Counted from the stretch's first letter, positions 2,519 to 51,300 are shown. The stretch is DNA of 64,000 nucleotides from an uncultured Nitrospiraceae bacterium (GCA_964412455.1 CAYPOT010000009.1:5179-69178), one strand, 5' to 3'. Translations and numbers: made by a program. The notes: generated from the sequence alone by a model not told the origin.

Positions 2519-2640
2519 CATGACCCTCACCCCTGCCCCTCTCCCCTGGAGGGAGAGGGAAAAAGGGAGAGGGGGCTTTTTCAACGCCGAGTGCGGAATG
2601 AAAGCCGTCATTCCCCCGAACGCGGGAATCCAGGGTTGTT
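2519..2640. repeat. Two REP-like hairpin repeats: R1 (CACCCCTGCCCCTCTCCCCTGGAGGGAGAGGG...) followed by R2 (GTCATTCCC-N-GGGAATCCAG)
   Basis: R1 is repeated almost exactly at 54903-54975, with variants at 23375-23410, 53213-53265, 57782-57815 and 58160-58192. R2 is repeated at 39673-39700, 39724-39752, 57107-57140, 57160-57195 and 63608-63640. Confidence 0.75.
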
Positions 2641-2759
2641 GCTTGAATATCACGCAGGGTCTTTGACGTATCCGCTTTTATCATAGCTTTTATCGGCTTC
2701 TATCCGTGTCAAAGATTTTGCTCTTAATCTGTGGTCACAACGGTATTTAAGGAGAGACA

Positions 2760-4043
2760 ATGACGCTTATCTATTTTTTGATCGTGATCGGCATCCTCGT
2801 GTTCGTGCACGAGTTCGGCCATTTCATCATGGCGAAGCGGGCCGGCGTGCGGGTGGAGAAGTTCTCCCTCGGCATGGGACCCCGGTTGTTCGGCTATAAG
2901 AAGGGCGACACGGACTACATCATTTCGGCGCTGCCGCTCGGCGGGTACGTGAAGATGGCGGGCGAGAACCCCGACGAGGAACCCACGGGCGCGGCGGACG
3001 AATTCCAGTCCAAGACCATCTGGCAGCGGGCGAAGATCGCGGCGGCCGGTTCCGTGACCAACATCGTCCTCGCGTTCCTGCTGATGCCGCTCGTGTTCAT
3101 GATCGGCACCTATACGTTGGGATCTTCGAGGGTAGGGGGTGTGGTCAAGGGATCTCCTGCTGAGCAGGCAGGGTTTTTGGCGGGGGATACGATCGAACGG
3201 ATAAGCGGCAAAGTGGTCACTGAATGGGAAAAGGTGGATATGTTGATCGCTGTGAATCCCAATACGGAAATCACGGTGGTGATCGATCGTAACGGGGAAA
3301 AAAAGACATTGACGCTCACGCCTCAGTTGGATGCGGAACGCAATATCGGCACTGCGGGCATATACCCTTCATTGTCAGCTGAAGTGGGACGACTTCGCCC
3401 GGGGCTGCCTGCGGAAAAGGCGGGCCTTAAGGTTAACGATAAGATCCTGGCTGTGGACGGCACGACCGTCTATTATTGGAATCAATTCTCCACCATGGTG
3501 AAAGAGAGCGGGGGAAAAAAGCTTTCCTTGCTGATCGAGCGGGAAGGAAAGCGCATGACGACTGCAATTACCCCGATCATGGACAGCGGCCGGCATGTCA
3601 TCGGCGTTGAGCCGTATGTTCGCCTGGATTTCAAGAAATATGGATTTTGGGAGTCCCTTCAGCTTGGTTTCATGAAGACCCTGGAGATCGCGGACCTGAC
3701 GTTCATCACCCTGAAGAAGCTGTTCTCGTTCTCGATCTCCATCAAGGCGCTGGGCGGGCCGGTGATGATCGCCCAGATGTCAGGACAGGCGGCGGCAGCG
3801 GGCCTGTCGGCCTTTATCGCGCTTATGGCCACCATCAGCCTGTCTCTCGGCATGCTGAACCTGCTGCCCATTCCGGTGCTGGACGGCGGCCTGCTCGTGT
3901 TTCTCGCCATCGAAGCGGTCCGGAAGAAACCCCTGAGCCAGAAGGTCATGGAAGTTTCCCAGAGCATCGGCGCCGCTTTGCTGATCACCCTGATCGCGGT
4001 GGTGTCGTACAACGATGTGATGAGGCTGTTCTTCAGTAAATAG
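2760..4043 (+). CDS. rseP: RIP zinc metalloprotease (site-2 protease) with PDZ domains
   Basis: HEFGHFIMAKRAGV (HExxH) near the N-terminus and PDZ-like internal region. Conserved position downstream of dxr. Confidence 0.85.
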   Translation: MTLIYFLIVIGILVFVHEFGHFIMAKRAGVRVEKFSLGMGPRLFGYKKGDTDYIISALPLGGYVKMAGENPDEEPTGAADEFQSKTIWQRAKIAAAGSVTNIVLAFLLMPLVFMIGTYTLGSSRVGGVVKGSPAEQAGFLAGDTIERISGKVVTEWEKVDMLIAVNPNTEITVVIDRNGEKKTLTLTPQLDAERNIGTAGIYPSLSAEVGRLRPGLPAEKAGLKVNDKILAVDGTTVYYWNQFSTMVKESGGKKLSLLIEREGKRMTTAITPIMDSGRHVIGVEPYVRLDFKKYGFWESLQLGFMKTLEIADLTFITLKKLFSFSISIKALGGPVMIAQMSGQAAAAGLSAFIALMATISLSLGMLNLLPIPVLDGGLLVFLAIEAVRKKPLSQKVMEVSQSIGAALLITLIAVVSYNDVMRLFFSK

Positions 4044-4160
4044 AGAAACACCAAATCTCAAACATCAAATAACAAATAATTTTCAATGACCGAAATTTTA
4101 AACATTGGTCATTGGAGTTTGGTGCTTATTTGATATTTGTATTTTGTAATTTGGAATTAA
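4044..4160. repeat. AT-rich imperfect hairpin repeat (arms of CAAAT / ATTTG motifs)
   Basis: Left arm caccaaatctcaaacatcaaataacaaataa, right arm ttatttgatatttgtattttgtaatttgg. A sister element lies at 51180-51300. Confidence 0.6.
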
Positions 4161-4164: not shown

Positions 4165-5262
4165 ATGAACCTTATCCCCCGCAAGAAGACTCGTTCGATC
4201 GCCCTCGGCAGCGTGAAGATCGGCTGGGGCTCGCCGGTTGCCGTCCAGTCCATGTGCAACACGGACACTCGGGACGCCGACACCACGCTCGTGCAGATCC
4301 GGCGTCTTGAAGCAGCCGGTTGCGAGATCGTCCGGCTTGCCGTGCCCGACACCGAGGCCGCGAAGGCCATCGGGAAGATCCGGAAAGGTACGACCGTTCC
4401 GCTCGTGGCCGATATCCACTTCGATCACCGGCTTGCCCTCGAAGCGGTGAAGCAGGGCGTTGATGGCCTTCGCATCAATCCGGGCAATATCGGAGGCAGG
4501 GACAAGGTCGCGGAAGTAGTGAGCGCCTGCAAGGACCGGCGTCTTCCCATTCGCATCGGGGTGAACGCGGGATCGCTCGAGAAGCACCTGCTAGAAAAGT
4601 ACGGCCACCCCACTCCTGAGGCTATCGTCGAGAGCGCGTTCGGCCATATTCGCATTCTTGAGGACCTGGATTACCGGGAGATCAAGGTCTCGCTCAAGGC
4701 GTCGGACGTTCTGACCACGGTCGAGGCCTACCGCCTGTTTGCGAAGCAGTCGGACTATCCTCTGCACATCGGCATCTCCGAGGCGGGCACGATCCACTCC
4801 GGCACGATCAAGTCGAGCGTCGGCCTCGGGATCCTGCTCGCCGAGGGCATCGGCGACACCATGCGGGTGTCGCTTACCGCGGACCCGGTCGAAGAGGTCC
4901 GCGTGGCCTACGGGATCCTTAAATCGCTCAAGATCCGTGAGCGGGGAGTGAATCTTATCTCCTGCCCCACCTGCGGCAGGACCGAGATCAATATCATCGG
5001 CCTTGCCGAAGAAGTGGAGCGCAGGCTCGGCCATATCACCGAGCCGCTCACCGTCGCGGTCATGGGCTGCGTGGTGAACGGGCCGGGCGAAGCGCGCGAG
5101 GCCGACATCGGCATCGCCGGCGGCAAAGGCGTGGGCATGCTGTTCAAGCACGGCGAGATCGTGAAAAGGTTCGACGAGAAAGAACTGGCGGATGTGCTGG
5201 TGAGGGAAGTTGAGAAGATGGTTCAATTACGTTCAAAGTTCAAGGTTCAAAGTTCAAAGTAG
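4165..5262 (+). CDS. ispG: 4-hydroxy-3-methylbut-2-enyl diphosphate synthase
   Basis: 365 aa; GcpE family features (RIGVNAGSLE, CPTCGRTE Fe-S cysteines). Confidence 0.9.
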   Translation: MNLIPRKKTRSIALGSVKIGWGSPVAVQSMCNTDTRDADTTLVQIRRLEAAGCEIVRLAVPDTEAAKAIGKIRKGTTVPLVADIHFDHRLALEAVKQGVDGLRINPGNIGGRDKVAEVVSACKDRRLPIRIGVNAGSLEKHLLEKYGHPTPEAIVESAFGHIRILEDLDYREIKVSLKASDVLTTVEAYRLFAKQSDYPLHIGISEAGTIHSGTIKSSVGLGILLAEGIGDTMRVSLTADPVEEVRVAYGILKSLKIRERGVNLISCPTCGRTEINIIGLAEEVERRLGHITEPLTVAVMGCVVNGPGEAREADIGIAGGKGVGMLFKHGEIVKRFDEKELADVLVREVEKMVQLRSKFKVQSSK

Positions 5263-5374
5263 GACTTCATTTTGCCGGATACCATTCCTTTTCGTTTGCA
5301 ATCAACGGGGTTCTCTGATAAATTAACACTATCGGCTGTAGGAGCGGTTAAAGCGCGCAGCCTGGAGGCATGCG

Positions 5375-5665
5375 ATGTCGACTATATCGATCAAAGGTGA
5401 TTCTTCGGAAACAGTCAGGTCACTCCTGACAAGTGCGTTGGACAGGGAAAAGCGCATTATTACTGACAGTTTGCGAACAACACGCGATAAGGTGAATGCC
5501 CTGGCAATAATGCTGTCGGTTGATGTTGAAAAGCTGATGCGGGGCGAGATCGAGCATGCTGAATCAAAGGACATGCAATTAATCGAACTCGAAGGGGAAG
5601 TCGAACTGCTCAGGCATCTTGAGACAGAGCTCAGGGAACTTGAAACCCTTGAAATATGCAGATAA
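5375..5665 (+). CDS. Small coiled-coil protein, putative antitoxin partner of the downstream DUF6516-like gene
   Basis: 96-aa ORF overlapping the next ORF by 10 nt, indicating translational coupling. Sits in an accessory-looking region of lower GC. Confidence 0.35.
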   Translation: MSTISIKGDSSETVRSLLTSALDREKRIITDSLRTTRDKVNALAIMLSVDVEKLMRGEIEHAESKDMQLIELEGEVELLRHLETELRELETLEICR

Positions 5666-6051
5666 AGGCATACCTTGACGGAATTCTCGATACACTTGCC
5701 GCGAATCCCCATGTGGAAGCCCAAAGTATTTCCTTTGAAGAACGCCCTCCCGATGCAGTCATCATAACAGGTATTGTCGCATTCATCGACGGCTCAAAAC
5801 TGCATATCAAAGAATTCCTGGTCCTGAAACCCGCTCATGCGGCTATCCTCAAGTATGGCTATCACTACGTGTCGAGTAAAGGTGAATTGATCTTCCGATA
5901 CGACAATGCGCTCGATCCCAAGGCGAGGGGATTGTCGACCTATCCGGAGCACAAACATGCTCCCGACGGATTAAAAGAAACCCGAAGACCATCGTGGCAG
6001 GATATTTTACGAGAAATTTCGAGCTCAATAGGCCAGTACATCAGGAAATAA
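5656..6051 (+). CDS. DUF6516 / TumE-family-like putative toxin
   Basis: 131 aa with ...IFRYDNALDPKARGLSTYPEHKHAPDG, resembling the RYDNAPHh..PHHKH signature I recall for DUF6516 (from memory, not searched). Confidence 0.4.
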   Translation: MQIKAYLDGILDTLAANPHVEAQSISFEERPPDAVIITGIVAFIDGSKLHIKEFLVLKPAHAAILKYGYHYVSSKGELIFRYDNALDPKARGLSTYPEHKHAPDGLKETRRPSWQDILREISSSIGQYIRK

Positions 6052-6069
6052 AACATTTTCGGAGACCCC

Positions 6070-6171
6070 ATGCGTTATTCCCGTTTGTTCATCCCCACCC
6101 TGAAAGAAGCCCCGACCGACGCCGAGGCGGTCTCGCACAAGCTCATGGTGCGCGCGGGCTTCGTGCGATAA
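6070..6171 (+). pseudogene. Displaced 5' fragment of proS (first 33 codons, then stop)
   Basis: atgcgttattcccgtttgttcatccccaccctgaaagaagccccgaccgacgccgaggcggtctcgcacaagctcatggtgcgcgcgggcttcgtgcg duplicates the start of intact proS at 13824. The GGAGA RBS is retained. Confidence 0.85.
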
Positions 6172-6210
6172 TCGGCGCCCTGCGGCAGCGTATGATGTAA
6201 ATAAATTTGA

Positions 6211-6239
6211 TTGACAATGGTTAGTATGAATATTATAAT
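6211..6239 (+). promoter_or_regulatory. Sigma70-like promoter TTGACA-N17-TATAAT upstream of the vapB-like gene
   Basis: Exact consensus hexamers at 6211-6216 and 6234-6239 with a 17-nt spacer, inside a short AT-rich block about 50 nt upstream of ATG 6289. Confidence 0.5.
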
Positions 6240-6288
6240 AAAGTATGATATATATTTTTGAATCGTATCTGATGGCAGGAGCGGGACA

Positions 6289-6534
6289 ATGAAAACGCTG
6301 ATGAGCGAGAGGGGTCAGGTGGTGATCCCGAAAAAGATCCGGGAGACCATTCACCTCCATAAAGGCGACGAACTGGAGATCGAGGTGCGCGATGAGACGA
6401 TCGTGCTGAAGCCGCTTCGCAGGTTCAAGGCCAAAAAATGGCAGGATTACGCCGGAATCGGTGAAGGCATCGTGGCTGCCCATCTCAAGGACAAGAAGAA
6501 GGAAAAAGCCGATGAAGATGCTTATTCTCGATAG
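6289..6534 (+). CDS. AbrB/MazE/SpoVT-domain antitoxin (VapB-like)
   Basis: MKTLMSERGQVVIPKKIRETIHLHKGDELEIEV is a swapped-hairpin AbrB-type DNA-binding motif. It overlaps the downstream PIN gene. Confidence 0.7.
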   Translation: MKTLMSERGQVVIPKKIRETIHLHKGDELEIEVRDETIVLKPLRRFKAKKWQDYAGIGEGIVAAHLKDKKKEKADEDAYSR

Positions 6535-6931
6535 CTACGCACTGCTCTGTCTTTTCGATAAAAAGCGCAGGACGGAGAAGGAAGCGATAATGTCCTATCT
6601 TGAGGATGCGGGCAAAGGCAAGGCGAAGCTTTATATCAGCAAGATCAACGAAGGTGAAGTGTTTTATAAGCTCTATAAGTATTTCGGCGCCGAGATCGCG
6701 ACCGGATTCAGGGCAGACCTCAAGCGGGGAATGTTCCCCCTGCATGTCGTGCCCGTGAATGATAAACGAATAGACGAAGCGTCCGTGATTAAGGCGAAAT
6801 ATCCGGTATCCTACGCCGACGCATTTTGCATAGAACTTGCCAGGGACATGAACCTGCCTGTGGTGACAGGTGATCCGGAATTCGAGGCTGTGAAGGACCT
6901 GATAAAGCTACAGCCGCTTGCGGAACAGTAG
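6512..6931 (+). CDS. PIN-domain toxin (VapC-like)
   Basis: MKMLILDSYALL... (conserved acidic D near the N-terminus) ...TGDPEF; ~140 aa, overlapping the antitoxin stop. Confidence 0.65.
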   Translation: MKMLILDSYALLCLFDKKRRTEKEAIMSYLEDAGKGKAKLYISKINEGEVFYKLYKYFGAEIATGFRADLKRGMFPLHVVPVNDKRIDEASVIKAKYPVSYADAFCIELARDMNLPVVTGDPEFEAVKDLIKLQPLAEQ

Positions 6932-6949
6932 CTCCTATGCGGACTTTCC

Positions 6950-7056
6950 GCACGGCGAGATCGTGAAGAAGTCCGATGAGAAGGAATTGGCCGATGTGCT
7001 GGTGAGGGAAGTGGAAGATTTAGTTCGGCAAAAAAATAAAAGGTAAGATCGTATTT
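6950..7056 (+). pseudogene. Displaced 3' fragment of ispG (last ~35 codons)
   Basis: cacggcgagatcgtgaagaagtccgatgagaaggaattggccgatgtgctggtgagggaagtggaag duplicates ispG 5150-5215. It encodes ...HGEIVKKSDEKELADVLVREVEDLVRQKNKR*. Confidence 0.8.
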
Positions 7057-7115
7057 CGTTTGGTGTCTCTTACATTGATAAAATGCACCAATGTTGTTTA
7101 AGAGAGATTTCAATT

Positions 7116-8435
7116 ATGAAAAAATATTATGATCCTTTATATGGTGAAATCAAGCTAGATGAGCTTGTCTTTAGTATTATTGAAAAATGTCCTGAAATAA
7201 AGCGGCTCAGATATGTCGGCCTCATGAATTTCAAATCTTTGAGCATGCTACCTTTAACAAGCATCACGAGGTTAGAACATACAATTGGTCTATCGTACCT
7301 AGCACAATTATTTGCCGACTCAAATTCTTTTTCAAAAACATCGAGGAACAATTTAATCGTCGCTTCACTTTTTCATGATGTTAACAGCGCGTCATTTGGA
7401 CATGCTATTGAATGGGCAGTGGATCGCTATACGCCTTATAACCACGAAAAGGAAACCGAGTGGTTAGCTGATAAAGAAAAGACCTCGTTTTTAAACAAAA
7501 AGCCAATATTTATTGAGCAATATGGTGTGACAAGATATGATTTGGAAAAAGAATATGGATTTAACTTGACTAAGGCTTATCAAATTATTAACGGAGTGGA
7601 TTCATTTACAATTAACAATAATGGAATAGATCTAGATAACGTTGACAACGTTTTTCGTATGGGTTTATACATGGGGCTGGAACCTTTCGAAAAGGGATGC
7701 CCTGTAAGGTTAGCCAAGAGTTTAAAGATAGTTGACGGGCGTGATAATTTTGTTATTAAAGAGGAAGCTATTGACTTAGTGATGACATGGTATCAATTAA
7801 GAGCGAATATTTACGGGAGATTTATTTACTCCGAAGAGTATATGGGTTATGAATATCTTTTATTTCAACTTATTGCTGAGTATGCAAAACACGTTGAGTT
7901 TGATAGCATAAGAAATCTTTTTAATTACACGGATGAAAATCTATTGTGGCATTTTTATGATAAGAAGAATTCGCTCCCGTCGGTAAGTAATATAGCGAGC
8001 ATGTTATTATTGCATGATATTCCTAAGACATACGCAATATTGCGCTCAGATGAATTTGACAAAAAAGAAAAACTAATTAAACCTGGAATTCTAGATGCTA
8101 TTGCCCAAAGTGTGAGTGAGTATTTGCACAATTCTAAAGAGGTTTCGAACACATCATCAGGGGAAATATTTTTGCATTTAACGACAGACGATAGAAAAAC
8201 CAACAGACAAATTGACTTTTATGTAGAGAAGAGTGGAGAAGTTGTTAAGCAATCTATAGGTTTCGATAAGAGATACATTGTTATTGGTGTATTGGGGAAA
8301 AAAAATCTGTCAGAAAAAGTAAAAACGCTAATCGCAGAAAAAACCATTGAAAAGCTTAGAAGCAGTAATTTGGGTAATTTCGATAATATTGAATTCGTCG
8401 AATCAAATGCGTTAAAGCAAAAAGTGCTATTCTAG
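7116..8435 (+). CDS. HD-domain phosphohydrolase, dGTPase/SAMHD1-like (dNTP triphosphohydrolase-like)
   Basis: DPLYGEIKL...IKRLRYVGLMNF...TRLEHTIGLSYLA...LIVASLFHDV, pattern of Dgt/SAMHD1 N-terminal HD region. First gene of the AT-rich operon. Alternative ATG at 7083. Confidence 0.55.
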   Translation: MKKYYDPLYGEIKLDELVFSIIEKCPEIKRLRYVGLMNFKSLSMLPLTSITRLEHTIGLSYLAQLFADSNSFSKTSRNNLIVASLFHDVNSASFGHAIEWAVDRYTPYNHEKETEWLADKEKTSFLNKKPIFIEQYGVTRYDLEKEYGFNLTKAYQIINGVDSFTINNNGIDLDNVDNVFRMGLYMGLEPFEKGCPVRLAKSLKIVDGRDNFVIKEEAIDLVMTWYQLRANIYGRFIYSEEYMGYEYLLFQLIAEYAKHVEFDSIRNLFNYTDENLLWHFYDKKNSLPSVSNIASMLLLHDIPKTYAILRSDEFDKKEKLIKPGILDAIAQSVSEYLHNSKEVSNTSSGEIFLHLTTDDRKTNRQIDFYVEKSGEVVKQSIGFDKRYIVIGVLGKKNLSEKVKTLIAEKTIEKLRSSNLGNFDNIEFVESNALKQKVLF

Positions 8436-8451
8436 CCGCACCTTTTAATTT

Positions 8452-9660
8452 ATGGAAAAGAAAAAAGATATTTCGCATTTTGATTTGCTTGATTGGAATT
8501 TTACTAGAGAAGATTCGAGACTCTACTTGCACAATTTCTGTTGGTATCCTTCAAGATTCATCCCAATAATCCCAGCCCACTTAATTCAAGCCCTAAGCAA
8601 GACCAATGAAACTGTGCTGGATCCGTTTTGCGGAATAGGGACTACGTTAGTCGAGGCTTTGAAGCAGAGGCGAAATGCAATTGGCGTTGATTTAAATCCA
8701 ATCGCATGCTTTGTCTCTAAAACTAAAGGAAAAATATTGACAGGTCATAAAGTAAACCTGTCTCTAATTGAAGGCTTGTTAGAAAACCTGGCGCCGTTGA
8801 GTGGTGATGATCTATTCACAAAAAAACGCACAGGTAGAGGTCATTATAATTTACGGGAGAAGTCAATCCCAAATTACGCTGTCAATGTGGAATGGTTTCA
8901 TCCCGAAACTTTAAAAATGCTTTCGCATATATACTATTCTGTCGAAGATCTTCCGAGAGGACTTACGAGGGATATATGCAAAATATTTTTTATTTCAATT
9001 CTCATGCAGTCCTCCGGGCACGATTTGAATAAGCCATACACTTATTATGCAGACAATGTGAAGCCTAAAAAAGAAAAATTGATTAAAGACGCCTACAAAC
9101 TATATGTGCAAAAATTGGATAAATTTTTATGTGAATATAAGCTCATAGAGTTACCCGAGAAAAACAGGCTGGATTTTGCCGTATACAACGAAGATGCGAG
9201 AGGGTTAGAAGGTTTGGTGGATAAAAAAGTTGACCTTATAGTTACTTCGCCTCCGTATTTAAATGTTACTGACTATACAACTGGCTTTAGGTTAGCTCAT
9301 CTGTGGTATAGCTTTCAAAAGGATATGCGTATTGAGGACATTAAAAGAAGAGAAATTGGTGCTCGATACAGGCGGAAGTCACGTAACAGTTTAAATGAAT
9401 ATGTCGGGGATATGCAGTCAGTCCTTTGCAAAATGGACAGCGTTTTAAAGACCAATGGGTATCTTTGCTTGATTCTTGGTGAATCACAAAAATACTCCAA
9501 GATTGTGAATAAGATAATAATGGACTTTATGTCGAACGAATTGCGGTTAGAATATATTGATTCTTTTAGTCGTGAGATAATAAAAAAATTCTTCATTCAT
9601 CCAAATGGTGGGGGTGTCAGTACAGAAGAAATTATTATTTACAGAAAAAAAAGAAAGTGA
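8452..9660 (+). CDS. DNA methyltransferase, N4/N6 family (motif I FxGxG then motif IV SPPY)
   Basis: VLDPFCGIGTTLVEA...IGVDLNP (AdoMet motifs I-III) and DLIVTSPPY (catalytic motif IV) about 200 aa later. SPPY is typical of N4-cytosine methyltransferases. Confidence 0.65.
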   Translation: MEKKKDISHFDLLDWNFTREDSRLYLHNFCWYPSRFIPIIPAHLIQALSKTNETVLDPFCGIGTTLVEALKQRRNAIGVDLNPIACFVSKTKGKILTGHKVNLSLIEGLLENLAPLSGDDLFTKKRTGRGHYNLREKSIPNYAVNVEWFHPETLKMLSHIYYSVEDLPRGLTRDICKIFFISILMQSSGHDLNKPYTYYADNVKPKKEKLIKDAYKLYVQKLDKFLCEYKLIELPEKNRLDFAVYNEDARGLEGLVDKKVDLIVTSPPYLNVTDYTTGFRLAHLWYSFQKDMRIEDIKRREIGARYRRKSRNSLNEYVGDMQSVLCKMDSVLKTNGYLCLILGESQKYSKIVNKIIMDFMSNELRLEYIDSFSREIIKKFFIHPNGGGVSTEEIIIYRKKRK

Positions 9661-10766
9661 GGTGTGTCTGCGCTATGGAAAATCACATCGTCATGATGCC
9701 TAATATGATAATACCATATGGCTACGAAATAGTGCCAATTATGGCTTATCCTGCTGGTTTTATCTACAGATTTAGATTTGATGAGGAATGGCTTTCAGAT
9801 AGGATAAAAGCCGATGTGTCTTCATTGTCAGCGAAAAAGGGTTATATCGTTTTCAGAGATCCAGAAAGCGCTACGTTTTACCCCATAAGGCATATCACAA
9901 TCAAGGTGGCGCAAAGAATAGGTAAATACTATTATTTTGAATATGAATTAAATGAAATATTTGACTTTGATTCTAACGAAACATGGAGGACAAAGCAAAT
10001 AACTCAATTTAATGACTCTTTTAAGAGTTTTCATGAATCAGAGTTTAAAGACAACATTCCTGGTAAAGATATGAAGCCCCTCGTATTTTTGACTAATTTT
10101 GCACCAACCATAAATAATGAACATGTCCAATTTACAAATCCATTGGAAAATGAGTTGGAGCGATGGGGAAATATAATTTCAATTATTAAAAATATAAAGT
10201 TTTATGAAAACGTAGAATTTATAAAAATCCTTGATATAGTGCCAATGAAAAAGCGAGACGAGGAAGTGCAAGTTAAAGAGAATTATTTATTTGTACAAGA
10301 AGACGGCGATTATAAGTTGAGGATATTTCAGCTTAAGCCTAAAGGATCGGTAGAAAGGATCGAACCGAAAGATATTGAAGTAAGATCAGACGACAAATAT
10401 ATTAGCGTCATAAGAAATAAACAACGCGCAGTAGGGAAGTATGATGTGCTAAGTTTCGTTTTCCGCGTGCATGCCGGCAGTGGAGGCCAGAGAAGTTATT
10501 TAGATGTTCTACATGCTCCCAAAACAGAAGCAGCCCAGTACATTGCGCCGACACTGTATCTTCCAGTAGCTATTCAAGGAAAAAGAAAGCTAATGGTTAT
10601 AAGAATTTTATTTGCCTTTGTCTTAGTCTCATTCTATCTTTTTCCTGAGGCTATAAGTTTCATATCTGATCACAGGATTGTGAAGGATTTTGCTATGGTC
10701 CTCTTCACTATTTCTGTGATAGATATTCTGAAAGAAATACGGGACCTGTTTAAGGCGAATAGATAA
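9657..10766 (+). CDS. Hypothetical protein with soluble N-domain and two C-terminal transmembrane helices
   Basis: No recognisable motif. C-terminus LMVIRILFAFVLVSFYLFPEAI...VKDFAMVLFTISVIDIL is strongly hydrophobic. Start overlaps the MTase stop (ATGA) and its stop overlaps the next start. Confidence 0.45.
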   Translation: MRCVCAMENHIVMMPNMIIPYGYEIVPIMAYPAGFIYRFRFDEEWLSDRIKADVSSLSAKKGYIVFRDPESATFYPIRHITIKVAQRIGKYYYFEYELNEIFDFDSNETWRTKQITQFNDSFKSFHESEFKDNIPGKDMKPLVFLTNFAPTINNEHVQFTNPLENELERWGNIISIIKNIKFYENVEFIKILDIVPMKKRDEEVQVKENYLFVQEDGDYKLRIFQLKPKGSVERIEPKDIEVRSDDKYISVIRNKQRAVGKYDVLSFVFRVHAGSGGQRSYLDVLHAPKTEAAQYIAPTLYLPVAIQGKRKLMVIRILFAFVLVSFYLFPEAISFISDHRIVKDFAMVLFTISVIDILKEIRDLFKANR

Positions 10767-12907
10767 TGGTTATCGTTGGCCTAAACCTTGGTTCAACAGA
10801 ATTTAATAAGAAATTACACGACGGAGGCATCTGTATTGTTGTTGATGGTAAAGTAAAATTCGCAGTGGCTGAAGAGCGTATTTCGCGCAGAAAGCGCTCA
10901 GGCGGATTCAGGGAATCACTGGACTATGCTCTTTCTTGTTTGAATTTAGATAGGAGTAATATCGATCTTGTTGTTTATTCAAGCTGTTGTGAGAGTATTA
11001 ACAATAGCATTAACATCGCAGAATTACAGAATATAAAATCAATTCCCTGTGACCATCATCTATCTCACGCTTTAAGTGTGTATCTGACATCTCCTTATGA
11101 AAAGGCACTTATTGCCGTTTTAGACGCAGGAGGAAATCTTCTCGGTAATGACAACCATAGTGACTGGTGGCTTCATTCCCGAGAGCAGCAATCATACTAT
11201 GTCGCAGAAGGGAACAATGTCACGCTAATTGATAGAGATTTTATCTTACCTGAAGCAGCAGGCATAGGGGAAATATATCGTGCCTTTACATATTATCTTG
11301 GGTGGGAATCTTCTCGATTTGCAGGCAAGACCATGGCGCTTGCCGCATATGGAGATCCTGGTGCATTTAAAGGTAACAACATATTTGACTTGGACATAAA
11401 TGGGAACATACGCTCACATATAAAAAATAATCCGATAGAGCCCTTGTCTATGGTTGAGCAGTTACTCGATAGATATGGGAGAAAAAATGTGCCTCCTCGG
11501 AAAGATGGTCAACCGATTCTACAAGTGCATAGTGATCTTGCTCGCTGGATACAAAATGAAACGGAGGACATAGTAACCGCAAAACTTAACTATTTAATGC
11601 GTAAGACAGGCATTTCTAATCTTTGTTTGGCAGGAGGAGTTGCCTATAATTGCTCGATGGTTGGAAAGATAATGAATAATACTATGGCAAATAATGTTTT
11701 TCTCCAGCCGGCATCGGGTGATCAAGGTCAATGTCTTGGCAATGCCATGTTTGGATACACTCAAATTAGAAATGCTTGGATAAGAGTTAATCCATTCAAT
11801 CCATATCTAGGATGCGGTATTGAAATAAACCATGATACAATTCGAGGCGCGTTAAAGAGTAATAATCAGGTTACAATTAATGCCCCGCGTGATATAGCAG
11901 TAACAACTGCAAAATTACTCTCGCAAGGAGAAATAGTGGCGTGGTTCCAAGATCGGAGTGAATTCGGTCCTCGTGCCTTGGGCAATCGAAGTATTCTTGC
12001 AAACCCCTGTCTTTCGAAGAGTAAGGAGAAATTGAATTCAATAAAGGGTCGTGAAGACTTTATGCCTTTTGCTCCGACTGTTCTATACGAAAGTGCAAAA
12101 GACTATTTTGTGATTTCCGATGAATGTCCTTTTATGACTGCAGCAGTTAAGGTGCGCCCAAACGTCAGAGAAACAATACCGGCAGCTGTCCATGTGGACG
12201 GAACATCTAGAGTCCAAACATTGAGAAAAGAAAATAATCCGCTATTTTACGATTTGATACATGAATTCTACAAGTTGACAAAAGTGCCATTAATTATTAA
12301 TACTTCATTCAATGCAGCTGGTGAGCCTATTGTTGAAACACTTAATAATGCAATAGACACTTTTATGAAATTAGACATAAGATTTATGGTAGCTGGTTCG
12401 TTCCTTCTGGAAAAGCCATTGGTTAGAACATCTATGCCTAGTGTCAAAGATGCAGGTCGGTTGTTGGATATTGTATTTGGGGCGGATCTGATCGTCAACG
12501 AGACGGAATTAAGTGCGCTGCTTAGTGAGCGCTTTCCGGGAATTAAATCCTTTCCTAGAGATAAATTTTTGCTCAATGAAAAATTTATTAATTGGTTAAA
12601 AAACGGCAGAAAAACGACAACCATTAGGTATAAGAAAGTGGGTATAGATTTCCCAGTGGCGACATGTTTGCCGCTAATTCCGACAAAAGATTTTTCAAAA
12701 AATCGAGGTGAAGCGCCAGTTGGCTTTTTGAAAATAAGAAAATATATAATAAAAAAATATCGGGATCTTAATGAAACAGATGCTCGTAATGATGGATTTA
12801 AAACTCTAACGGAGCTAAGAAGTGTTCTTTTCGATATCTATGGTGCTATACAAGAAGATGACTATGTTTCTATATACTATGTTCAAATAAAAAATAATCC
12901 AAGTTAA
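10766..12907 (+). CDS. NodU/CmcH-type carbamoyltransferase (Kae1/YgjD-like N-domain + carbamoyltransferase C-domain) with ~170-aa C-terminal extension, possibly ASCH/PUA-like
   Basis: MVIVGLNLGST...DGGICIVVDGKVKFAVAEERISRRKR...CDHHLSHALSVY (Carbam_trans_N) and RSILANPCLSKSKEKLNSIKGREDFMPFAPTV (Carbam_trans_C). Tail INWLKNGRKTTTIRYKKV is a weak ASCH-like motif. Confidence 0.6.
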   Translation: MVIVGLNLGSTEFNKKLHDGGICIVVDGKVKFAVAEERISRRKRSGGFRESLDYALSCLNLDRSNIDLVVYSSCCESINNSINIAELQNIKSIPCDHHLSHALSVYLTSPYEKALIAVLDAGGNLLGNDNHSDWWLHSREQQSYYVAEGNNVTLIDRDFILPEAAGIGEIYRAFTYYLGWESSRFAGKTMALAAYGDPGAFKGNNIFDLDINGNIRSHIKNNPIEPLSMVEQLLDRYGRKNVPPRKDGQPILQVHSDLARWIQNETEDIVTAKLNYLMRKTGISNLCLAGGVAYNCSMVGKIMNNTMANNVFLQPASGDQGQCLGNAMFGYTQIRNAWIRVNPFNPYLGCGIEINHDTIRGALKSNNQVTINAPRDIAVTTAKLLSQGEIVAWFQDRSEFGPRALGNRSILANPCLSKSKEKLNSIKGREDFMPFAPTVLYESAKDYFVISDECPFMTAAVKVRPNVRETIPAAVHVDGTSRVQTLRKENNPLFYDLIHEFYKLTKVPLIINTSFNAAGEPIVETLNNAIDTFMKLDIRFMVAGSFLLEKPLVRTSMPSVKDAGRLLDIVFGADLIVNETELSALLSERFPGIKSFPRDKFLLNEKFINWLKNGRKTTTIRYKKVGIDFPVATCLPLIPTKDFSKNRGEAPVGFLKIRKYIIKKYRDLNETDARNDGFKTLTELRSVLFDIYGAIQEDDYVSIYYVQIKNNPS

Positions 12908-12939
12908 TTAGTTGCTCTGCTAAACGACAAAACACAAAA

Positions 12940-13782
12940 ATGACGCAATTTTTGAAAGACTTGCTGCGAAACTATGGGCTCTTGTACATAACGCTTACGC
13001 AGCTTTTGAGTGAGCGACCAGGAAACAAGTATGCTTCGCTGGACGAGTACTATCACAGTCTGGGCATGCAGACGCCTGATAACCCAATGTTTTACGTGCA
13101 TCCGAGCTCGGATGGCAAAACGCGCTACTTAGACGAGGGAGAGCACGATATTGAAGCGCGTGATGATGCGGGTAACAAGGTTGGAAAAGTAGTTGGCGTT
13201 TTGGAACTTCCGGAAGACGAATTCTATTTTTTTCAAGCATTCCGTCCTGGCATGTTCGATTTAGAAAAGGATCTTCCTTCATTTCTTTTTGAAATGGCAT
13301 TAATTTATGCTAATTCTCTATTTGAAAATTACATATCTAGCATTATTCGTCTCAGGTTTCAAAAACACCCAGAACTGATGGGTGTCAATAAACAAGTGAC
13401 TTATGGTCAAGTAATTAAGAGCAATTCGAAACAAGATGTCATCGAGCACCTGATTAATCGAGAAGTCCAACAATTGATGTATGAGCCTATCGGTGCAGTA
13501 TTGGAACGAATGCGAGCAAAATACGGATTTCGAGATCTAACCACGAAGTACGACGAGGAAATAATTTATCTGTCACTTATAAGAAATTGCGTTATGCATA
13601 ATTCTCGGAAGGTTGATTCTAAGCTTGCCACCAATAAACCTAAGCTAGTATTAGGCGAAAGATTGCCTGTTGAAAAGAGTCTCGTGGACACAGCAATTCA
13701 TACTTACCGAAAATTTTGCTATGAAGTTGATATCATGTTAGAAGCTATTGGATCACTCAAACAAACAAGTGAGCCTCTATGA
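12940..13782 (+). CDS. Hypothetical protein with HEPN-like Rx4H motif (LIRNCVMHNSRK)
   Basis: 280 aa, last gene of the AT-rich operon. R-x4-H near the C-terminal third is compatible with a HEPN RNase motif. No other recognisable features. Confidence 0.35.
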   Translation: MTQFLKDLLRNYGLLYITLTQLLSERPGNKYASLDEYYHSLGMQTPDNPMFYVHPSSDGKTRYLDEGEHDIEARDDAGNKVGKVVGVLELPEDEFYFFQAFRPGMFDLEKDLPSFLFEMALIYANSLFENYISSIIRLRFQKHPELMGVNKQVTYGQVIKSNSKQDVIEHLINREVQQLMYEPIGAVLERMRAKYGFRDLTTKYDEEIIYLSLIRNCVMHNSRKVDSKLATNKPKLVLGERLPVEKSLVDTAIHTYRKFCYEVDIMLEAIGSLKQTSEPL

Positions 13783-13823
13783 GGAATGTCGGCATATAGA
13801 AATTGCATGCACAGGGGGTATTG

Positions 13824-15518
13824 ATGCGCTACTCGAAACTGTTCATTCCTACATTAAAAGAGGCGCCGACCGACGCCGAGGCGGTCTCGCACAAGCTCAT
13901 GGTGCGCGCCGGCTTCGTGCGCCAGCTCGCGGCGGGGCTCTATATCTACCTTCCGCTGGGCATCCGGGTGATGGAGAAGATCAACCGCATTATCCGCGAG
14001 GAAATGAACGCCATCGGCGGCCAGGAAGTGACCATGCCGGTGCTGAATCCCGCCGAGGTGTGGCAGCAGACCGGGCGGTGGGATGCCATCGGCGGCGAGA
14101 TGTTCCGTCTCAAGGACCGCGGCGGCAGGGACATGTGCCTGGCCATGACCCACGAGGAGACCATGACCTGGCTCGCGGCGCACGATATCCGTTCCTACCG
14201 GGAACTGCCCCAGATCTGGTACCAGGTGCAGACGAAATTACGGGACGAAGCGCGGCCCAAGAGCGGCGTACTCCGGACGCGCGAGTTCACCATGAAGGAC
14301 TCCTACAGCTTCGACGCCGATGAGGCCGGGCTCGACCGGTCCTATCAACTTCATCTCGAGGCCTACAAGAAGATCTACTCCCGCTGCGGAATTCGATTTC
14401 ACGTGGTCCAGAGCGACACGGGCATGATGGGCGGCAGCATGGCGCACGAGTACATGGCGCCTTCTCCGGCGGGCGAGGACGACGTGGCGCTCTGCGATGG
14501 CTGCGGGTACGCGGCGAACACGGAGCTCGCGCTGTCCGTGCCGAAGGCGGCTGCATCATCGAACGACAGTTACGAGGAGATCGCTACGCCGGAACGGCGA
14601 ACCATCGACGAGGTGACCCGCTTCCTGAAGGTCACGCCGGACCGTTTGCTCAAGTCCATCCTCGTCACGACCGACCAGGGACCGCTGCTGGCGCTGGTGC
14701 GCGGCGACCAGACCCTGCATGAGAAGAAGCTGGCCAAGCTTATCGGACCCCATCGGCCCGCGCAGAAGGACGAGGTGAAGGCCGCTCTCGGCGTGCCTGT
14801 CGGATTCATCGGCCCCATGGGCCACAAGATCCGGAAGATCGCTGACCTGGTGCTGAAACAGGGGACCCACATCGCCGGCGCGAACAAGGAAGGCTTCCAT
14901 GTGAAGGGTGTCTCCGCGGACAAGCATTTCAGCGACGCCGAGTTCGCGGACATCCACACCGCGGCGGAAGGCGACGCCTGCGCCCAGTGCGGCAAGCCGC
15001 TGCGCATCGAGCGGGTCATCGAGATCGGGAACATCTTCAAGCTGGGCACCAAGTACTCCGTCCCGCTCAAGGCGAACTACCTTGACGAACAGGGGAATGA
15101 GAAGCCCATCATCATGGGGAGCTACGGCATCGGCCCGGCGCGCATCGCCGCCGCGGCCATCGAGCAGGGGAACGACGAGAACGGCATCATCTGGCCGGCG
15201 GCGATCGCGCCCTACCAGGTCCTGATCGTGCCGGTGAACGTGAAAGACCAGCGCTCCATGGACGTGGCCGAGGAGATGCACACGGCCCTTGAGGAAAAAG
15301 GGTTCGAGGCGCTCATGGACGACCGCGACGAACGGGCCGGCGTCAAGTTCAAGGACGCGGACCTTATCGGCATTCCGTACCGGGTCGTCATCGGCGAGAA
15401 GAACCTGAAGGAAGACCTGGTGGAGCTTAAGGAGCGGAAGACCGGGGTCGTGGTCAAGGTGAAGGTCGCCGACGCGGTGGCGGCGATCGTGAAGAAGATC
15501 GTGATGGAGAACGCGTAA
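13824..15518 (+). CDS. proS: Proline--tRNA ligase
   Basis: [32 protein letters not shown]-terminus and class II aaRS motifs. ATG 13824 preferred over TTG 13803. The first ~45 nt are notably AT-richer than the displaced copy at 6070. Confidence 0.9.
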   Translation: MRYSKLFIPTLKEAPTDAEAVSHKLMVRAGFVRQLAAGLYIYLPLGIRVMEKINRIIREEMNAIGGQEVTMPVLNPAEVWQQTGRWDAIGGEMFRLKDRGGRDMCLAMTHEETMTWLAAHDIRSYRELPQIWYQVQTKLRDEARPKSGVLRTREFTMKDSYSFDADEAGLDRSYQLHLEAYKKIYSRCGIRFHVVQSDTGMMGGSMAHEYMAPSPAGEDDVALCDGCGYAANTELALSVPKAAASSNDSYEEIATPERRTIDEVTRFLKVTPDRLLKSILVTTDQGPLLALVRGDQTLHEKKLAKLIGPHRPAQKDEVKAALGVPVGFIGPMGHKIRKIADLVLKQGTHIAGANKEGFHVKGVSADKHFSDAEFADIHTAAEGDACAQCGKPLRIERVIEIGNIFKLGTKYSVPLKANYLDEQGNEKPIIMGSYGIGPARIAAAAIEQGNDENGIIWPAAIAPYQVLIVPVNVKDQRSMDVAEEMHTALEEKGFEALMDDRDERAGVKFKDADLIGIPYRVVIGEKNLKEDLVELKERKTGVVVKVKVADAVAAIVKKIVMENA

Positions 15519-15529
15519 TTGCAGGGGAA

Positions 15530-15576
15530 ACCCTATGTGGTTGCCCTGATCCGGGCGGCCACGCAGGGCCGCCCCT
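15530..15576. repeat. REP-A repeat, copy 2 (variant GCAGGGGAAACC...)
   Basis: aaccctatgtggttgccctgatccgggcggccacgcagggccgcccctac immediately after the proS stop. Confidence 0.8.
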
Positions 15577-15607
15577 ACATTAGATCAGGCGAGAGGGGCA
15601 AGGGGAA

Positions 15608-16653: not shown

Positions 16654-18498
16654 GTGACAAAAGTCGTTAGTAGGATCATCAAGGAAGCAAGAGAAAACCC
16701 TATGACCAGGCTTACGACGGACATGCTCGGCGAGATTCTCCTGAAGGCGGGGAAGCTTACGCCTGAGCAGGCGAAAGAGATCAGGATCAAACAGGACCAT
16801 CAGCGGATGAAGATCCTGAAGTCACGGGGCGAGACGATCCACCGCGGCAGGGTCCACCTCGAGGACGAAGTGTCAGCGATCGAGGTCGCCGCTTCGCTGG
16901 AGTTCGAACAGGCCGGTGCGCCGGGAAAGGTCCTTACCGAGGACCTCATTACCGAGGCCGTCGCCCTGCACGTCGGCATGCCCTTTAGAAAGATCGATCC
17001 CTTGAAGCTCAATCCGGAGATCGTCACCCAGATCCTGCCGCGGGCCTTTGCCCGCAGGAACGGCGCAGTGCCGATCGGTCGGGGTGAGGACAAGCTCACG
17101 GTCGCCGTATCGGACCCCTTCAACCTCGAGGTCGTGGAAAACATCGAGCGGATGGGATTCAAGGTTTCCCGGGTCCTCTCCCCCCGGACGGACATCCTGA
17201 AGATCATTACCGAGTTCTACGGGTTCCGCTCATCGGTGAGCGCCGCGGCCAAGGAATTGGGCTCCGAGGTGGATCTCGGGAACCTCGAACAGTTCGTCAA
17301 GATGAAGGCCGTGTCCGAGATCGAGGCCACGGACAAGCACATCGTGACCGCCGTGGAGTTCCTGTTCCGCTACGCCTTCGACCAGCGGGCCAGCGATATC
17401 CACATCGAGCCCAAGCGCGACGTTTCCGAGATCCGGTTTCGGATCGACGGCATGCTCCATGTGATCAACAAGGTCCCCAAACAGGTCCATCCCGCCTTCG
17501 TGTCCCGCATCAAAATGCTCTCCCGCATGGATATCGCCGAGAAGCGCCGGCCCCAGGATGGCCGTATCAAGACCGAATACAAGGGGCGTGAGGTCGAGTT
17601 TCGCGTGTCCACGATGCCGGTCGCGTTCGGTGAGAAAGTGGTGCTCAGGATCTTCGACCCCGATATCATCCTGCAGGACCTGGAGGAACTGGGTTTCTCG
17701 AAGCGGGAGTATGAGCTCTTTCGTTCCTTCATCGCCCGGCCTCATGGCATTGTTCTTGTCACGGGCCCCACGGGAAGCGGCAAGACCACCACGCTCTATT
17801 CCGCGCTCAAGACCGTCTCGACTCCCGAAGTGAACGTGATCACTGTCGAGGACCCCATCGAAATGGTCTACGACCGTTTTAATCAGGTGGCCGTCCAGCC
17901 GCAGATCGGCGTCACGTTCGGCACGACGCTTCGCACGATCCTCCGCCAGGACCCGGACATCATCATGGTGGGCGAGGTACGGGACCTTGATACCGCGGAG
18001 AACGCCGTCCAGGCGTCCCTGACCGGTCATCTGGTCTTTTCGACCCTGCACACCAACGACGCGCCGAGCTCCATCACGCGTCTCCTGGACCTGGGACTCC
18101 CCGCCTTCCTTATCGCGTCGACCGTGGTGGGGATCATGGCCCAGCGGCTGCTGCGGAAAGTCTGCAAGAACTGCGAACGGACGTACCAGCTTCTGCCCGA
18201 GGAGGCCGCGGCCGTCGGCCTTTCGTCCGATCTGAACCAGAAGATCATGGTAAAGTACGGCGAGGGCTGCGGTCAGTGCCGGGGCACCGGTTATCTCGGA
18301 AGGACCGGGATCTTTGAGGTCATGGAAGTGAACGAGAAGATCCGGCCGCTCATCACCGAGAAGGCGGACTCCGAGTTCATCAAGCGCACGGCCATCGGCG
18401 ACGGAATGGTGACGCTCCGCGAAGGCGCGGTGCGGAAGATGCTGAGCGGTGAGACCACCTTTGACGAGGTCATCCGCGTAACGGGGGAAAAAATCTAG
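16654..18498 (+). CDS. GspE/PilB-family secretion ATPase (orphan, with N-terminal GspE_N-type domains)
   Basis: LGEILLKAGKLTPEQAKEI (T2SSE_N), Walker A GPTGSGKTTTLY, tetracysteine CKNCER...CGQCRG. GTG 16654 or ATG 16702 start. Confidence 0.8.
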   Translation: MTKVVSRIIKEARENPMTRLTTDMLGEILLKAGKLTPEQAKEIRIKQDHQRMKILKSRGETIHRGRVHLEDEVSAIEVAASLEFEQAGAPGKVLTEDLITEAVALHVGMPFRKIDPLKLNPEIVTQILPRAFARRNGAVPIGRGEDKLTVAVSDPFNLEVVENIERMGFKVSRVLSPRTDILKIITEFYGFRSSVSAAAKELGSEVDLGNLEQFVKMKAVSEIEATDKHIVTAVEFLFRYAFDQRASDIHIEPKRDVSEIRFRIDGMLHVINKVPKQVHPAFVSRIKMLSRMDIAEKRRPQDGRIKTEYKGREVEFRVSTMPVAFGEKVVLRIFDPDIILQDLEELGFSKREYELFRSFIARPHGIVLVTGPTGSGKTTTLYSALKTVSTPEVNVITVEDPIEMVYDRFNQVAVQPQIGVTFGTTLRTILRQDPDIIMVGEVRDLDTAENAVQASLTGHLVFSTLHTNDAPSSITRLLDLGLPAFLIASTVVGIMAQRLLRKVCKNCERTYQLLPEEAAAVGLSSDLNQKIMVKYGEGCGQCRGTGYLGRTGIFEVMEVNEKIRPLITEKADSEFIKRTAIGDGMVTLREGAVRKMLSGETTFDEVIRVTGEKI

Positions 18499-31408: not shown

Positions 31409-31578
31409 GAATGAGAGTCGAATATTGAATGTAATTTCGTTCATGGTCAGCCGAAAATTAGGCGCGAACGGATCCTGTATTTATTGATTCATGATGCGGA
31501 CTGAAAGCACTTATACTGAACTAAAAATAAGCGGCAGGCCATCTGGCCTGCCTTTGTCGTCTTCCGCATGCGCATCGC

Positions 31579-32750: not shown

Positions 32751-32774
32751 TTCTGTTCATGTGATGTTTGACGC

Positions 32775-51179: not shown

Positions 51180-51300
51180 GCCAAATGACAAGAATCAAAT
51201 CACAAATAAATTTCAATTTTCAAACGCCAAATTCCAACCGTTTGGGATATTGATATTTGAATTTTGGAGCTTATTTGAGATTTGCTATTTGTAATTTGGA
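51180..51300. repeat. AT-rich CAAAT/ATTTG hairpin repeat (sister of 4044-4160)
   Basis: caaatgacaagaatcaaatcacaaataaatttc ... atttgaattttggagcttatttgagatttgctatttgtaatttgg. Confidence 0.6.

Follow-up and report, generated by a model that had tools for sequence, protein, structure and literature searches.

The window analyzed here is a 64,000-nt stretch of DNA from an uncultured Nitrospiraceae bacterium, in which the spacer between ispG and proS is a composite of three cassettes that in relatives occur one per genome. The order is ispG, a gene for a 96-aa protein followed by one for TumE, a stump of proS, vapB and vapC, a stump of ispG, a five-gene operon, and proS, as already described in an initial annotation of this sequence. 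The left flanking core gene is an intact ispG (positions 4165 to 5262, plus strand, as are all genes and blocks described below), a 365-aa ORF with GcpE Pfam domains in the gene calls, whose product shows 82 to 94% aa identity to ispG proteins of Nitrospirota. The body of this gene, up to approximately position 5205, is 95 to 100% identical to that of one relative (L110), and its tail (5211 to 5262) is a different, clade-typical variant (...RSKFKVQSSK). The right flanking core gene is an intact proS (13824 to 15518) encoding a 564-aa ProRS with tRNA-synt_2b, tRNA_edit, and HGTP_anticodon domains. The flanks have a G+C content of ~62% versus ~36% in the five-gene operon (7116 to 13782). Since all of the cargo genes are co-oriented with ispG and proS and no convincing terminator was found between the cargo and proS, the latter can still be transcribed.

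Composition of the three cassettes

The first cassette (T block; 5287 to 6167) is a single colinear unit consisting of a promoter/operator-like edge, a tumA-like gene, tumE, and the proS stump. The tumA-like gene (5375 to 5665) codes for a putative TumA-type antitoxin of 96 aa and overlaps tumE by 10 nt; its product has no match in Pfam, NCBIfam, or PHROG, and the gene is found upstream of TumE in all TumAE-carrying relatives. The downstream gene (5656 to 6051) encodes a toxin with a DUF6516 domain (PF20126; E = 2.6e-19; 69 bits against a cutoff of 23.4) that also matches the PADLOC model PDC-M44B (E = 7.5e-15). It scores 52 bits with the NCBIfam TumE equivalog model, below the cutoff of 90, and is thus a member of the TumE family rather than an equivalog.

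The second cassette (V block; 6176 to 6939) is a complete vapBC unit with its own promoter, a perfect TTGACA-17-TATAAT consensus at 6211 to 6239. The products of vapB (6289 to 6534; PF04014, E = 9e-13) and vapC (6512 to 6931; PF01850 [PIN], E = 3.9e-13), whose genes overlap by 23 nt, are predicted to form a VapBC type II toxin-antitoxin (TA) system, with the PIN-domain toxin encoded after the AbrB/MazE-fold antitoxin. At the nucleotide level, this block is 80% identical to L001 (11108 to 11857) and 87% identical to L097 and L098.

The third cassette (A block; 7047 to 13823), set apart by its composition, is the AT-rich operon, which comprises genes for an HD protein (7116 to 8435), an N6/N4 DNA methyltransferase (8452 to 9660), an unknown protein (9657 to 10766), a carbamoyltransferase-ASCH protein (10766 to 12907), and a second unknown protein (12940 to 13782); the named assignments come from Pfam and PADLOC searches. 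The first four of these genes are kept together in two relatives (L089 and L090) and represent an uncharacterized conserved cassette; the nearest homolog of the 713-aa signature protein of the operon is 55% identical.

The ispG-proS spacer in relatives

The initial annotation had proposed an insertion hotspot and suggested a comparison of orthologous loci, which indeed uncovers both empty sites and alternative cargo. Approximately 12 relatives (L002, L003, L004, L046, L084 to L086, L091, and L093 to L096) have an empty site with a spacer of just 74 to 173 nt. Three (L001, L097, and L098) carry vapBC alone, without any repeats, and another three (L102 to L104) have TumAE as the sole cargo, while TumAE is accompanied by other cargo in at least seven (L099 to L101 and L105 to L108); the spacer of L110 contains a gene for a single 193-aa protein. 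The composite state is confined to one lineage among the sampled loci, and in ~30 related loci neither the proS 5′ end nor the ispG 3′ end was found a second time. The spacer is thus an integrase-free, core-gene-flanked variable hotspot in a clade of Nitrospirota (class UBA9217).

Recombination among members of this clade is evident from the relatives themselves, which form a star-like, mosaic group whose rseP alleles fall into two deeply diverged classes. Both the ispG tail and the proS segment from 13824 to 14750 differ from the nearest backbone relatives, but with relatives of this kind, none of them close enough to be a parent, no clean recombination tract could be mapped in ispG or proS.

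Provenance of the gene-end copies

The duplicated gene ends are real and far beyond chance expectation, with blastn E values of 1e-27 for an 82-nt core of the proS copy and 8e-19 for the best 66 nt of the ispG copy. The starts assigned to them in the initial annotation hold, and the ends were drawn generously: the proS stump spans 6070 to 6167, with 6171 being merely where its 33-codon ORF runs to a stop, and the ispG stump ends at 7046 rather than 7056.

The proS stump corresponds to the first 98 nt of the gene and is 85% identical to the resident copy (13824 to 13921), with 14 mismatches among the first 42 nt and a single one over the remaining 56. It is 97% identical to the proS of the empty-site relative L084, with the first 41 nt being identical. 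Together with TumAE, it is 94.6% identical to L109, and both L109 and L084 are of the stump type at 13 of the 15 diagnostic sites in the proS 5′ end. More generally, the stump-type 5′ sequence is found in all TumAE-linked proS genes, versus the intact type in vapBC-linked ones. The stump retains the clade-type ribosome-binding site, 18 nt past the tumE stop, and the entire stretch from 5287 to 6167 is colinear (80 to 95% nucleotide identity) with the TumAE-proS region of 11 contigs (L099 to L109). The TumAE-proS spacer is 17 to 20 nt in every contig readable there, the sole exception being L108, whose sequence breaks off at the tumE stop; a full-length proS follows in L099, L100, L102, and L103, and otherwise proS reaches the contig end. 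At the other extremity, a conserved left edge (5290 to 5330) is common to L102, L099, and L105. The proS stump is the truncated end of a TumAE-proS arrangement widespread in the clade.

The intact proS carries the 5′ allele seen in L085, L086, L094, and the vapBC-linked loci and agrees with L085, an empty-site genome, at 11 of the 15 diagnostic sites. Its "AT-rich" 5′ end is accordingly an ordinary chromosomal allele, which weakens the earlier proposal that the island supplied a replacement start for the gene. The 56-nt near-identical stretch is the most conserved part of proS across the relatives, and a crossover cannot be placed in it because both allele classes vary at its sole informative site, position 87.

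The ispG stump (6950 to 7046; 97 nt) comprises the last 32 codons and the stop codon (7044 to 7046), in frame throughout, with one conserved F changed to S. Its first 77 nt (6950 to 7026) are 83% identical to 5148 to 5224 of the resident gene, with evenly spread differences. Identity to other alleles of the clade (L094, L110, and L097) is 84 to 91%, and its tail (...EVEDLVRQKNKR) is unlike that of the resident ispG. Judging from these allele affinities, both stumps appear to be imported alleles and not duplicates that arose in situ and diverged.

Structure of the junctions

The V block begins 8 nt past the proS stump and ends ~10 nt short of the ispG stump, leaving two tight junctions. At the first (J1; 6168 to 6175), homology to proS stops at 6167 and homology to the L001 vapBC block starts at 6176, with the intervening 8 nt assignable to neither parent block. 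At the second (J2; 6940 to 6949), homology to the sequence downstream of vapC in L001 stops ~8 nt past the vapC stop, and homology to ispG resumes at 6950 after ~10 nt of filler. The partner sequences have at most 3 nt in common at these joints. A candidate GCG microhomology at J1 would need an L097-type parent, and the spacer in the window is closer to L001.

Proposed origin of the composite locus

We consider it probable that DNA from related strains recombined through one flanking gene and was joined illegitimately at its other end, thereby stacking cassettes. The stumps would then probably be leftovers of these cassette joins and not sites at which a mobile element docked. In such a scheme, the "alleles" of the locus differ among genomes (empty, TumAE, vapBC, or other cargo), and DNA bearing a different allele would enter through one homologous exchange in ispG or proS combined with one illegitimate join. 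This is tantamount to homology-facilitated illegitimate recombination (HFIR) or, equivalently, to a single crossover of a circularized chromosomal fragment. If the second join did not reach the opposite flank, the cassette already in place would be retained and the incoming one added, resulting in stacking instead of replacement. Each event would leave a stump of a flanking gene at a novel joint, and at least two events would be required. The predicted product is the T block up to proS nt 1 to 98, the V block, and then the last 97 nt of ispG with the AT-rich operon and proS.

This proposal draws on the observed hotspot states, the colinearity between each stump and a block next to which relatives have the full gene, the tight homology-free joints, and the lack of mobile-element hallmarks. 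One-sided homology, as in HFIR, is seen in the T block running into the proS 5′ end and in the A block lying between the ispG 3′ end and proS, and a homology-free joint is seen at both J1 (8 nt) and J2 (~10 nt). We infer the mechanism itself, the order of the events, which proS and ispG alleles are native, and an ispG-AT operon-proS donor allele, of which no instance was found among the relatives. The earlier interpretation of the duplicated gene ends as recombination scars thus stands. A Campbell-type event, which it had also invoked, is possible in a homology-driven version, in which the DNA would have come from a related chromosome and not from a mobile element.

Alternative explanations

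A different reading was raised in the initial annotation, namely, that the proS 5′ and ispG 3′ ends are att sites at which one or more circular elements bearing a copy of either gene end integrated, the integrase having been lost or acting in trans. The locus would then be a CIME-like decayed element comparable to e14 and phage 21 in the icd gene of Escherichia coli, where integrating prophages duplicate the gene end and the repeats flank one integrase-encoding element. Gene ends present as direct repeats are what such integration classically leaves behind; the 56-nt proS stretch following a diverged 42-nt arm resembles a core with foreign arms; and the AT-rich cargo is clearly foreign. As in icd, foreign DNA adjoins a duplicated end of a housekeeping gene, the copies show many synonymous differences, and the host gene is intact. 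Nevertheless, we regard this reading as improbable. The repeats are interleaved (ispG 3′ end, proS 5′ stump, ispG 3′ stump, and proS 5′ end) rather than nested or tandem, and both of the segments that they bound hold vapBC, which is solitary and repeat free in L001, L097, and L098. Unlike in icd, the stumps are part of alleles that relatives carry on their chromosomes, with that of proS being of the TumAE-linked type and colinear with TumAE just as in full TumAE-proS loci. The supposed core coincides with the most conserved part of proS, and the ispG copies have no identity core at all. The gene calls within 10 kb on either side contain no integrase, in line with the initial annotation, and no recombinase domain occurs among the island proteins or the gene calls (window positions ~1 to 22900 plus 4.3 kb upstream). 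Likewise, no tRNA is present in the window, no terminal inverted repeat or target site duplication was found at the block edges, and the lack of a second stump in the ~30 loci means that there is no recurrent endpoint.

An intragenomic tandem duplication of the interval from the ispG 3′ end to the proS 5′ end, followed by divergence and by cargo acquisition that differed between the copies and the joint, would naturally give the order of proS stump and then ispG stump seen in the layout. However, the copies are 15 to 17% apart, with each being closer to alleles of other genomes than to its partner, and the proS allele of the stump is the type linked to TumAE clade-wide. Nor does any close relative show two identical or nearly identical cargo copies on either side of a bare proS-5′|ispG-3′ joint. 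Moreover, the presence of a complete vapBC, a common allele of the site, exactly at the supposed joint would be a coincidence, making this origin decidedly improbable.

Finally, all of the structural evidence comes from metagenome assemblies, and an assembler might have stitched together T, V, and AT-operon alleles of three coexisting strains. The short-read contigs of run ERR3094302 do not span the junctions; they end at nt 72 within each proS copy, as a k = 31 graph would be expected to do where 44 nt are shared. Such a chimera is nevertheless very improbable. The joints (6167/6168 and 6939 to 6950) lie at the ends of homology and not within shared sequence, no shared repeat at J1 or J2 could mislead an assembler, and no k-mer path could make joints between partners sharing at most 3 nt. 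Moreover, the structure, including both joints, recurs in another assembly (ENA ERZ27247837 k141_2157167; L083/L087), which has only 2 mismatches in 22 kb.

Comparison with known systems and implications

One-sided recombination is itself a known phenomenon and not new. HFIR has been defined experimentally as the integration of adjacent foreign DNA through one homologous anchor and one illegitimate join in Acinetobacter baylyi, Streptococcus pneumoniae, and Pseudomonas stutzeri and also in E. coli conjugation (PMC3240628). The locus resembles these cases in that its joints lack homology and contain no more than 10 nt of filler and in that its blocks are bounded on the opposite side by a conserved core gene. 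It differs in being known from sequence alone and in that the "foreign" DNA comes from a related genome, where it is another allele of this locus, which is why the joint retains a stump of the flanking gene on the opposite side. HFIR has also been proposed for T6SS effector/immunity arrays that retain old modules and 3′ gene remnants (PMC5361080). The locus shares with the T6SS clusters of Vibrio cholerae and with Rhs/CDI orphan modules the addition through one flank, the shifting of older modules, and the gene-end remnants. In those systems, however, the conserved flank lies inside the toxin gene and retention is explained by immunity value, whereas here there are two unrelated housekeeping flanks, the retained modules are TA pairs, and additions came from both sides. 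A third parallel is provided by core defense hotspots such as cDHS1 of Pseudomonas aeruginosa, for which transfer by homologous recombination in the flanks has been proposed, with the manner in which core-gene-flanked hotspots are built being a stated open question (PMC10250203). Like cDHS1, the present site lies between fixed core genes, holds cargo that is highly variable, and lacks a consistent integrase; unlike it, the site is much smaller (0.1 to 8.6 kb), belongs to an uncultured lineage, and preserves physical scars of cargo addition.

More speculatively, the resident TA cassettes (vapBC and TumAE) may be the cause of stacking over swapping: a swap by clean crossovers in both ispG and proS would delete an addiction module and kill the recombinant, such that only rare one-sided, module-keeping events survive. 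If true, TA pairs would be ratchets that grow integrase-free hotspots, with stumps of the flanking genes as their footprints. Separately, the HD/DNA methyltransferase/unknown/carbamoyltransferase-ASCH cassette could be an undescribed DNA-modification-based defense system. We hold both of these ideas to be doubtful.

For annotators, the locus is a caution that duplicated gene ends are not necessarily att sites. Homologous recombination in flanking genes normally leaves no trace. Here, in a rare natural case, traces have survived: relatives still have the "parental" alleles with a single cargo (TumAE-proS and ispG-vapBC-proS), and each joint of the composite retains a stump of the opposite gene. 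Together, these parental alleles and stumps would make one-sided homologous plus illegitimate recombination a concrete and checkable route of island growth in this uncultured Nitrospirota lineage.

Organization of the ispG-proS interval

The interval between ispG and proS in the window spans 8.6 kb, with every gene on the + strand. Intact ispG (4165-5262) forms the left flank and is followed by a 96-aa gene that overlaps the gene of a TumE-family toxin (5375-6051; PF20126, E = 2.6e-19 for the toxin), a 98-nt copy of the start of proS (hereafter the proS stump, 6070-6167), a sigma-70 promoter of perfect consensus (6211-6239) ahead of vapB/vapC (6289-6931; PF04014 and PF01850), and an in-frame 97-nt copy of the end of ispG with the tail ...EVEDLVRQKNKR (the ispG stump, 6950-7046). 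Next come five genes of an AT-rich operon (7116-13782), encoding in order an HD-domain protein, an N6/N4 DNA methyltransferase, an unannotated protein, a carbamoyltransferase-ASCH fusion, and another unannotated protein; intact proS (13824-15518) forms the right flank. The G+C content of the operon is ~36%, as against ~62% in the flanks.

The two proS copies share 85% identity; 14 of their differences fall within the first 42 nt and a single one within the last 56. The two ispG copies are 83% identical, with mismatches distributed along the full copy. The blastn E values (1e-27 for proS and 8e-19 for ispG) exclude chance; the duplicated gene ends reported in the initial annotation are real, although the end coordinates assigned to them were slightly generous. 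A second assembly of the locus (L083/L087) has an identical layout, with 2 mismatches in 22 kb. Both mismatches sit in ispG (4165-5262; L083/L081/L082 compared), which may reflect strain heterogeneity adjoining the hotspot, and Logan contigs show one difference from the window.

States of the locus in relatives

In the Nitrospirota lineage of the window (class UBA9217, an assignment taken from the name of the L084 record), the gene order uppS-cdsA-dxr-rseP-ispG-proS is conserved. We sampled the ispG-proS locus by three routes, namely, ispG, a proS core DNA pattern, and TumE homologues. The spacer is empty (74-173 nt) in about 12 relatives (L002-L004, L046, L084-L086, L091, and L093-L096), holds vapBC as its sole cargo in L001, L097, and L098, holds TumAE as its sole cargo in L102-L104, and carries different cargo upstream of TumAE in L099-L101 and L105-L108; in L110, the cargo is a 193-aa membrane protein (2568-3149). 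This comparison of orthologous loci, with its empty sites and alternative cargo, bears out the earlier proposal that the site is a hotspot. Among the sampled loci, the composite arrangement with duplicated gene ends occurs in the lineage of the window only.

The cargo ahead of TumAE is varied: L099 (4783-8396) encodes a second VapBC-like pair along with AhpC/TSA peroxiredoxin, CsgG/Lcl_C-like, and DUF559 endonuclease-like proteins, and in L105 (1-2352) a VF530 protein precedes TumAE. Insertions of 0.5-2.2 kb between ispG and proS are also found in more distant Desulfuromonadales and other genomes (L008, L009, L011, L016, and L092).

Component alleles of the composite locus

At the sequence level, the locus reads as three alleles of one site joined head to tail: a TumAE allele cut at nt 98 of proS (T block), a complete vapBC allele (V block), and an allele made up of the ispG stump, the AT-rich operon, and proS. 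The T block (5287-6167) is one colinear unit with 80-95% nt identity to TumAE-proS in eleven other contigs. From a conserved promoter/operator-like element at its left edge (5290-5330), it runs through both TumAE genes and a 17-20-nt spacer into proS, which is a full gene in the relatives but ends at nt 98 in the window. The proS 5' allele of the stump type (...TCC CGT TT...) is common to all TumAE-linked proS genes, and the intact type (...AAA/AAG...) is found in vapBC-linked loci and at several empty sites. Because the intact proS of the window agrees with L085, an empty site, at 11 of the 15 diagnostic sites, its 5' end is an ordinary chromosomal allele and not island sequence; this weakens the suggestion that the island had supplied an AT-rich replacement for it.

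The V block (6176-6939), promoter included, is 80% identical to the vapBC allele of L001 and 87% identical to those of L097/L098; it starts 8 nt past the proS stump and ends ~10 nt ahead of the ispG stump. The latter is a distinct allele of the clade, with 84-91% identity to L094, L110, and L097 versus 83% to the resident ispG. At the joints that follow the T and V blocks (J1 and J2, respectively), the partners have at most 3 nt in common and the joints sit where homology ends. A GCG microhomology at J1 is conceivable, holding only with an L097-type parent. None of the dispersed small repeats of the window lies at a junction.

Origin of the composite locus

The best fit for the locus is recombination with DNA of related strains, one-sided homologous and completed by an illegitimate join (homology-facilitated illegitimate recombination [HFIR]). 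The incoming DNA would have undergone homologous exchange in one of the flanking core genes, its other end would have been joined illegitimately, and at least two such events would be needed. HFIR is defined experimentally (PMC3240628) and has been put forward for T6SS and Rhs arrays that keep old modules and gene remnants (PMC5361080). Since the relatives are star-like and mosaic in sliding-window and informative-site scans of proS and ispG, the sole informative core site is polymorphic, and the donor of the AT-rich operon is absent from the databases, the events may have occurred in either order, either copy of proS and ispG may be the native allele, and the substrate may have been linear (HFIR) or circularized (Campbell-type). 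By the same scans, the L084-like stump need not be the native copy, and the G at stump position 87 is no argument against a crossover inside the repeat, because that site is polymorphic in both allele classes. We further speculate that an addiction ratchet may operate, whereby toxin-antitoxin cassettes would enforce stacking, since clean replacement would delete the addiction module (for general background, see PMC12548467 and PMC7167474).

That the stack is an assembly chimera is unlikely, given joints at the ends of homology whose partners share so few nucleotides. Site-specific integration of circular elements at the gene ends, as first proposed, predicts repeats flanking the element, a recombinase, and recurrent endpoints. 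Repeats are present, but the two pairs are interleaved rather than flanking, and both of the segments that they bound hold vapBC, a cassette that in relatives stands by itself with no repeats. No integrase is present among the gene calls within ±10 kb, in agreement with the initial annotation, the window has no tRNA, no block edge shows a TIR or TSD, and no second stump occurs in the whole sample of loci. This model fails on the defining features tested, and the proS 5' and ispG 3' ends are unlikely to be att sites. Duplication in situ followed by divergence is contradicted by the closer similarity of each stump to alleles of other genomes than to its own partner.

Cargo of the locus

TumE-TumA is a validated toxin-antitoxin superfamily that targets translation (PMC10584680). 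The first four genes of the AT-rich operon form a cassette (7116-12907) that is also found, at 50-55% aa identity, in L089 (4410-10133) and L090 (303-6026); its third gene encodes an unannotated protein of ~370 aa with a hydrophobic segment at the C terminus. In L089, the cassette adjoins genes for a Type ISP restriction (R-M) enzyme, Toprim/SNF2, and mobile-element genes. The fifth gene of the operon (12940-13782; 280 aa, no matches) lies outside the conserved cassette. PADLOC matches only the methyltransferase of the cassette, the other members lack a PHROG match, and relaxed Pfam, NCBIfam, and PHROG searches left the 96-, 369-, and 280-aa proteins without annotation. The carbamoyltransferase-ASCH fusion had no relatives in a metagenome scan and none above 55% identity in a large protein search, so that these searches yielded no donor allele for the operon. 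Plasmid, phage-family, and viral-contig searches recovered only generic NodU-like carbamoyltransferases (~30-36% identity) without the ASCH fusion. The gene combination of the cassette is not described in the literature searched, and we consider it a candidate for an undescribed DNA-modification/defence system.

Other repeats and variable regions of the window

A G+C-rich, hairpin-forming REP-like element of 56 nt occurs at 1286-1341, 15523-15578, and 52589-52644 (68-100% identity), with one copy beginning 5 nt past the proS stop codon, and is also present at the end of contig L110. An element of 80-98 nt with a long CT/GA-rich palindrome is found at 2502-2598 and 54888-54985 (96% identity); the former copy, in the dxr-rseP spacer, is located exactly where alignment with relatives fails, so that it resembles a small element of the mobile or repeat kind. 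Ahead of ispG (4052-4155) lies an AT-rich 'TATTTGATATTTG...' motif block, which belongs to an imperfect inverted repeat of 47 nt and appears again at 51249-51300. The empty ispG-proS spacer of L084 (11099-11210) is filled with motifs similar to those of the block, which may serve as a shared promoter or regulatory element.

In the PDZ region of rseP (3000-3750), the alleles fall into two classes separated by deep divergence, which points to recombination or diversifying selection. Mutual identity among the window, L084, and L110 is 90-99% there, while L085, L086, and L001 reach an identity of only 60-74%, although the flanking parts of rseP are ~95% identical in all of those compared. At its C terminus, IspG is hypervariable over the final 10-20 residues throughout the clade (P0001-P0120), with many unrelated lysine/serine-rich tails, and the tail of the window (5211-5262) is encoded by tandem GTTCAAR heptamers. 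The tail type RSKFKVQSSK, considered for a link to TumAE alleles, shows none, as L102 carries another tail. Three tandem repeats of ~213 nt (29896-30540; 61-71% identity) and a pair of 230-nt repeats 1.2 kb apart (31576-31805 and 32772-33001; 89% identity) probably encode repeat domains. A pair of paralogous genes for T2SSE/PilB-type ATPases (17498-18174 and 50174-50850) has 71-79% nt identity in the conserved parts.

Relation to known systems

The locus behaves similarly to the integrase-free core hotspots of Pseudomonas, the construction of which is an open question (PMC10250203), and to HFIR-type sequential displacement arrays, and is in this respect unlike a site-specific integrative element. 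What makes it valuable is that both the scars and the parental alleles with a single cargo can be seen.
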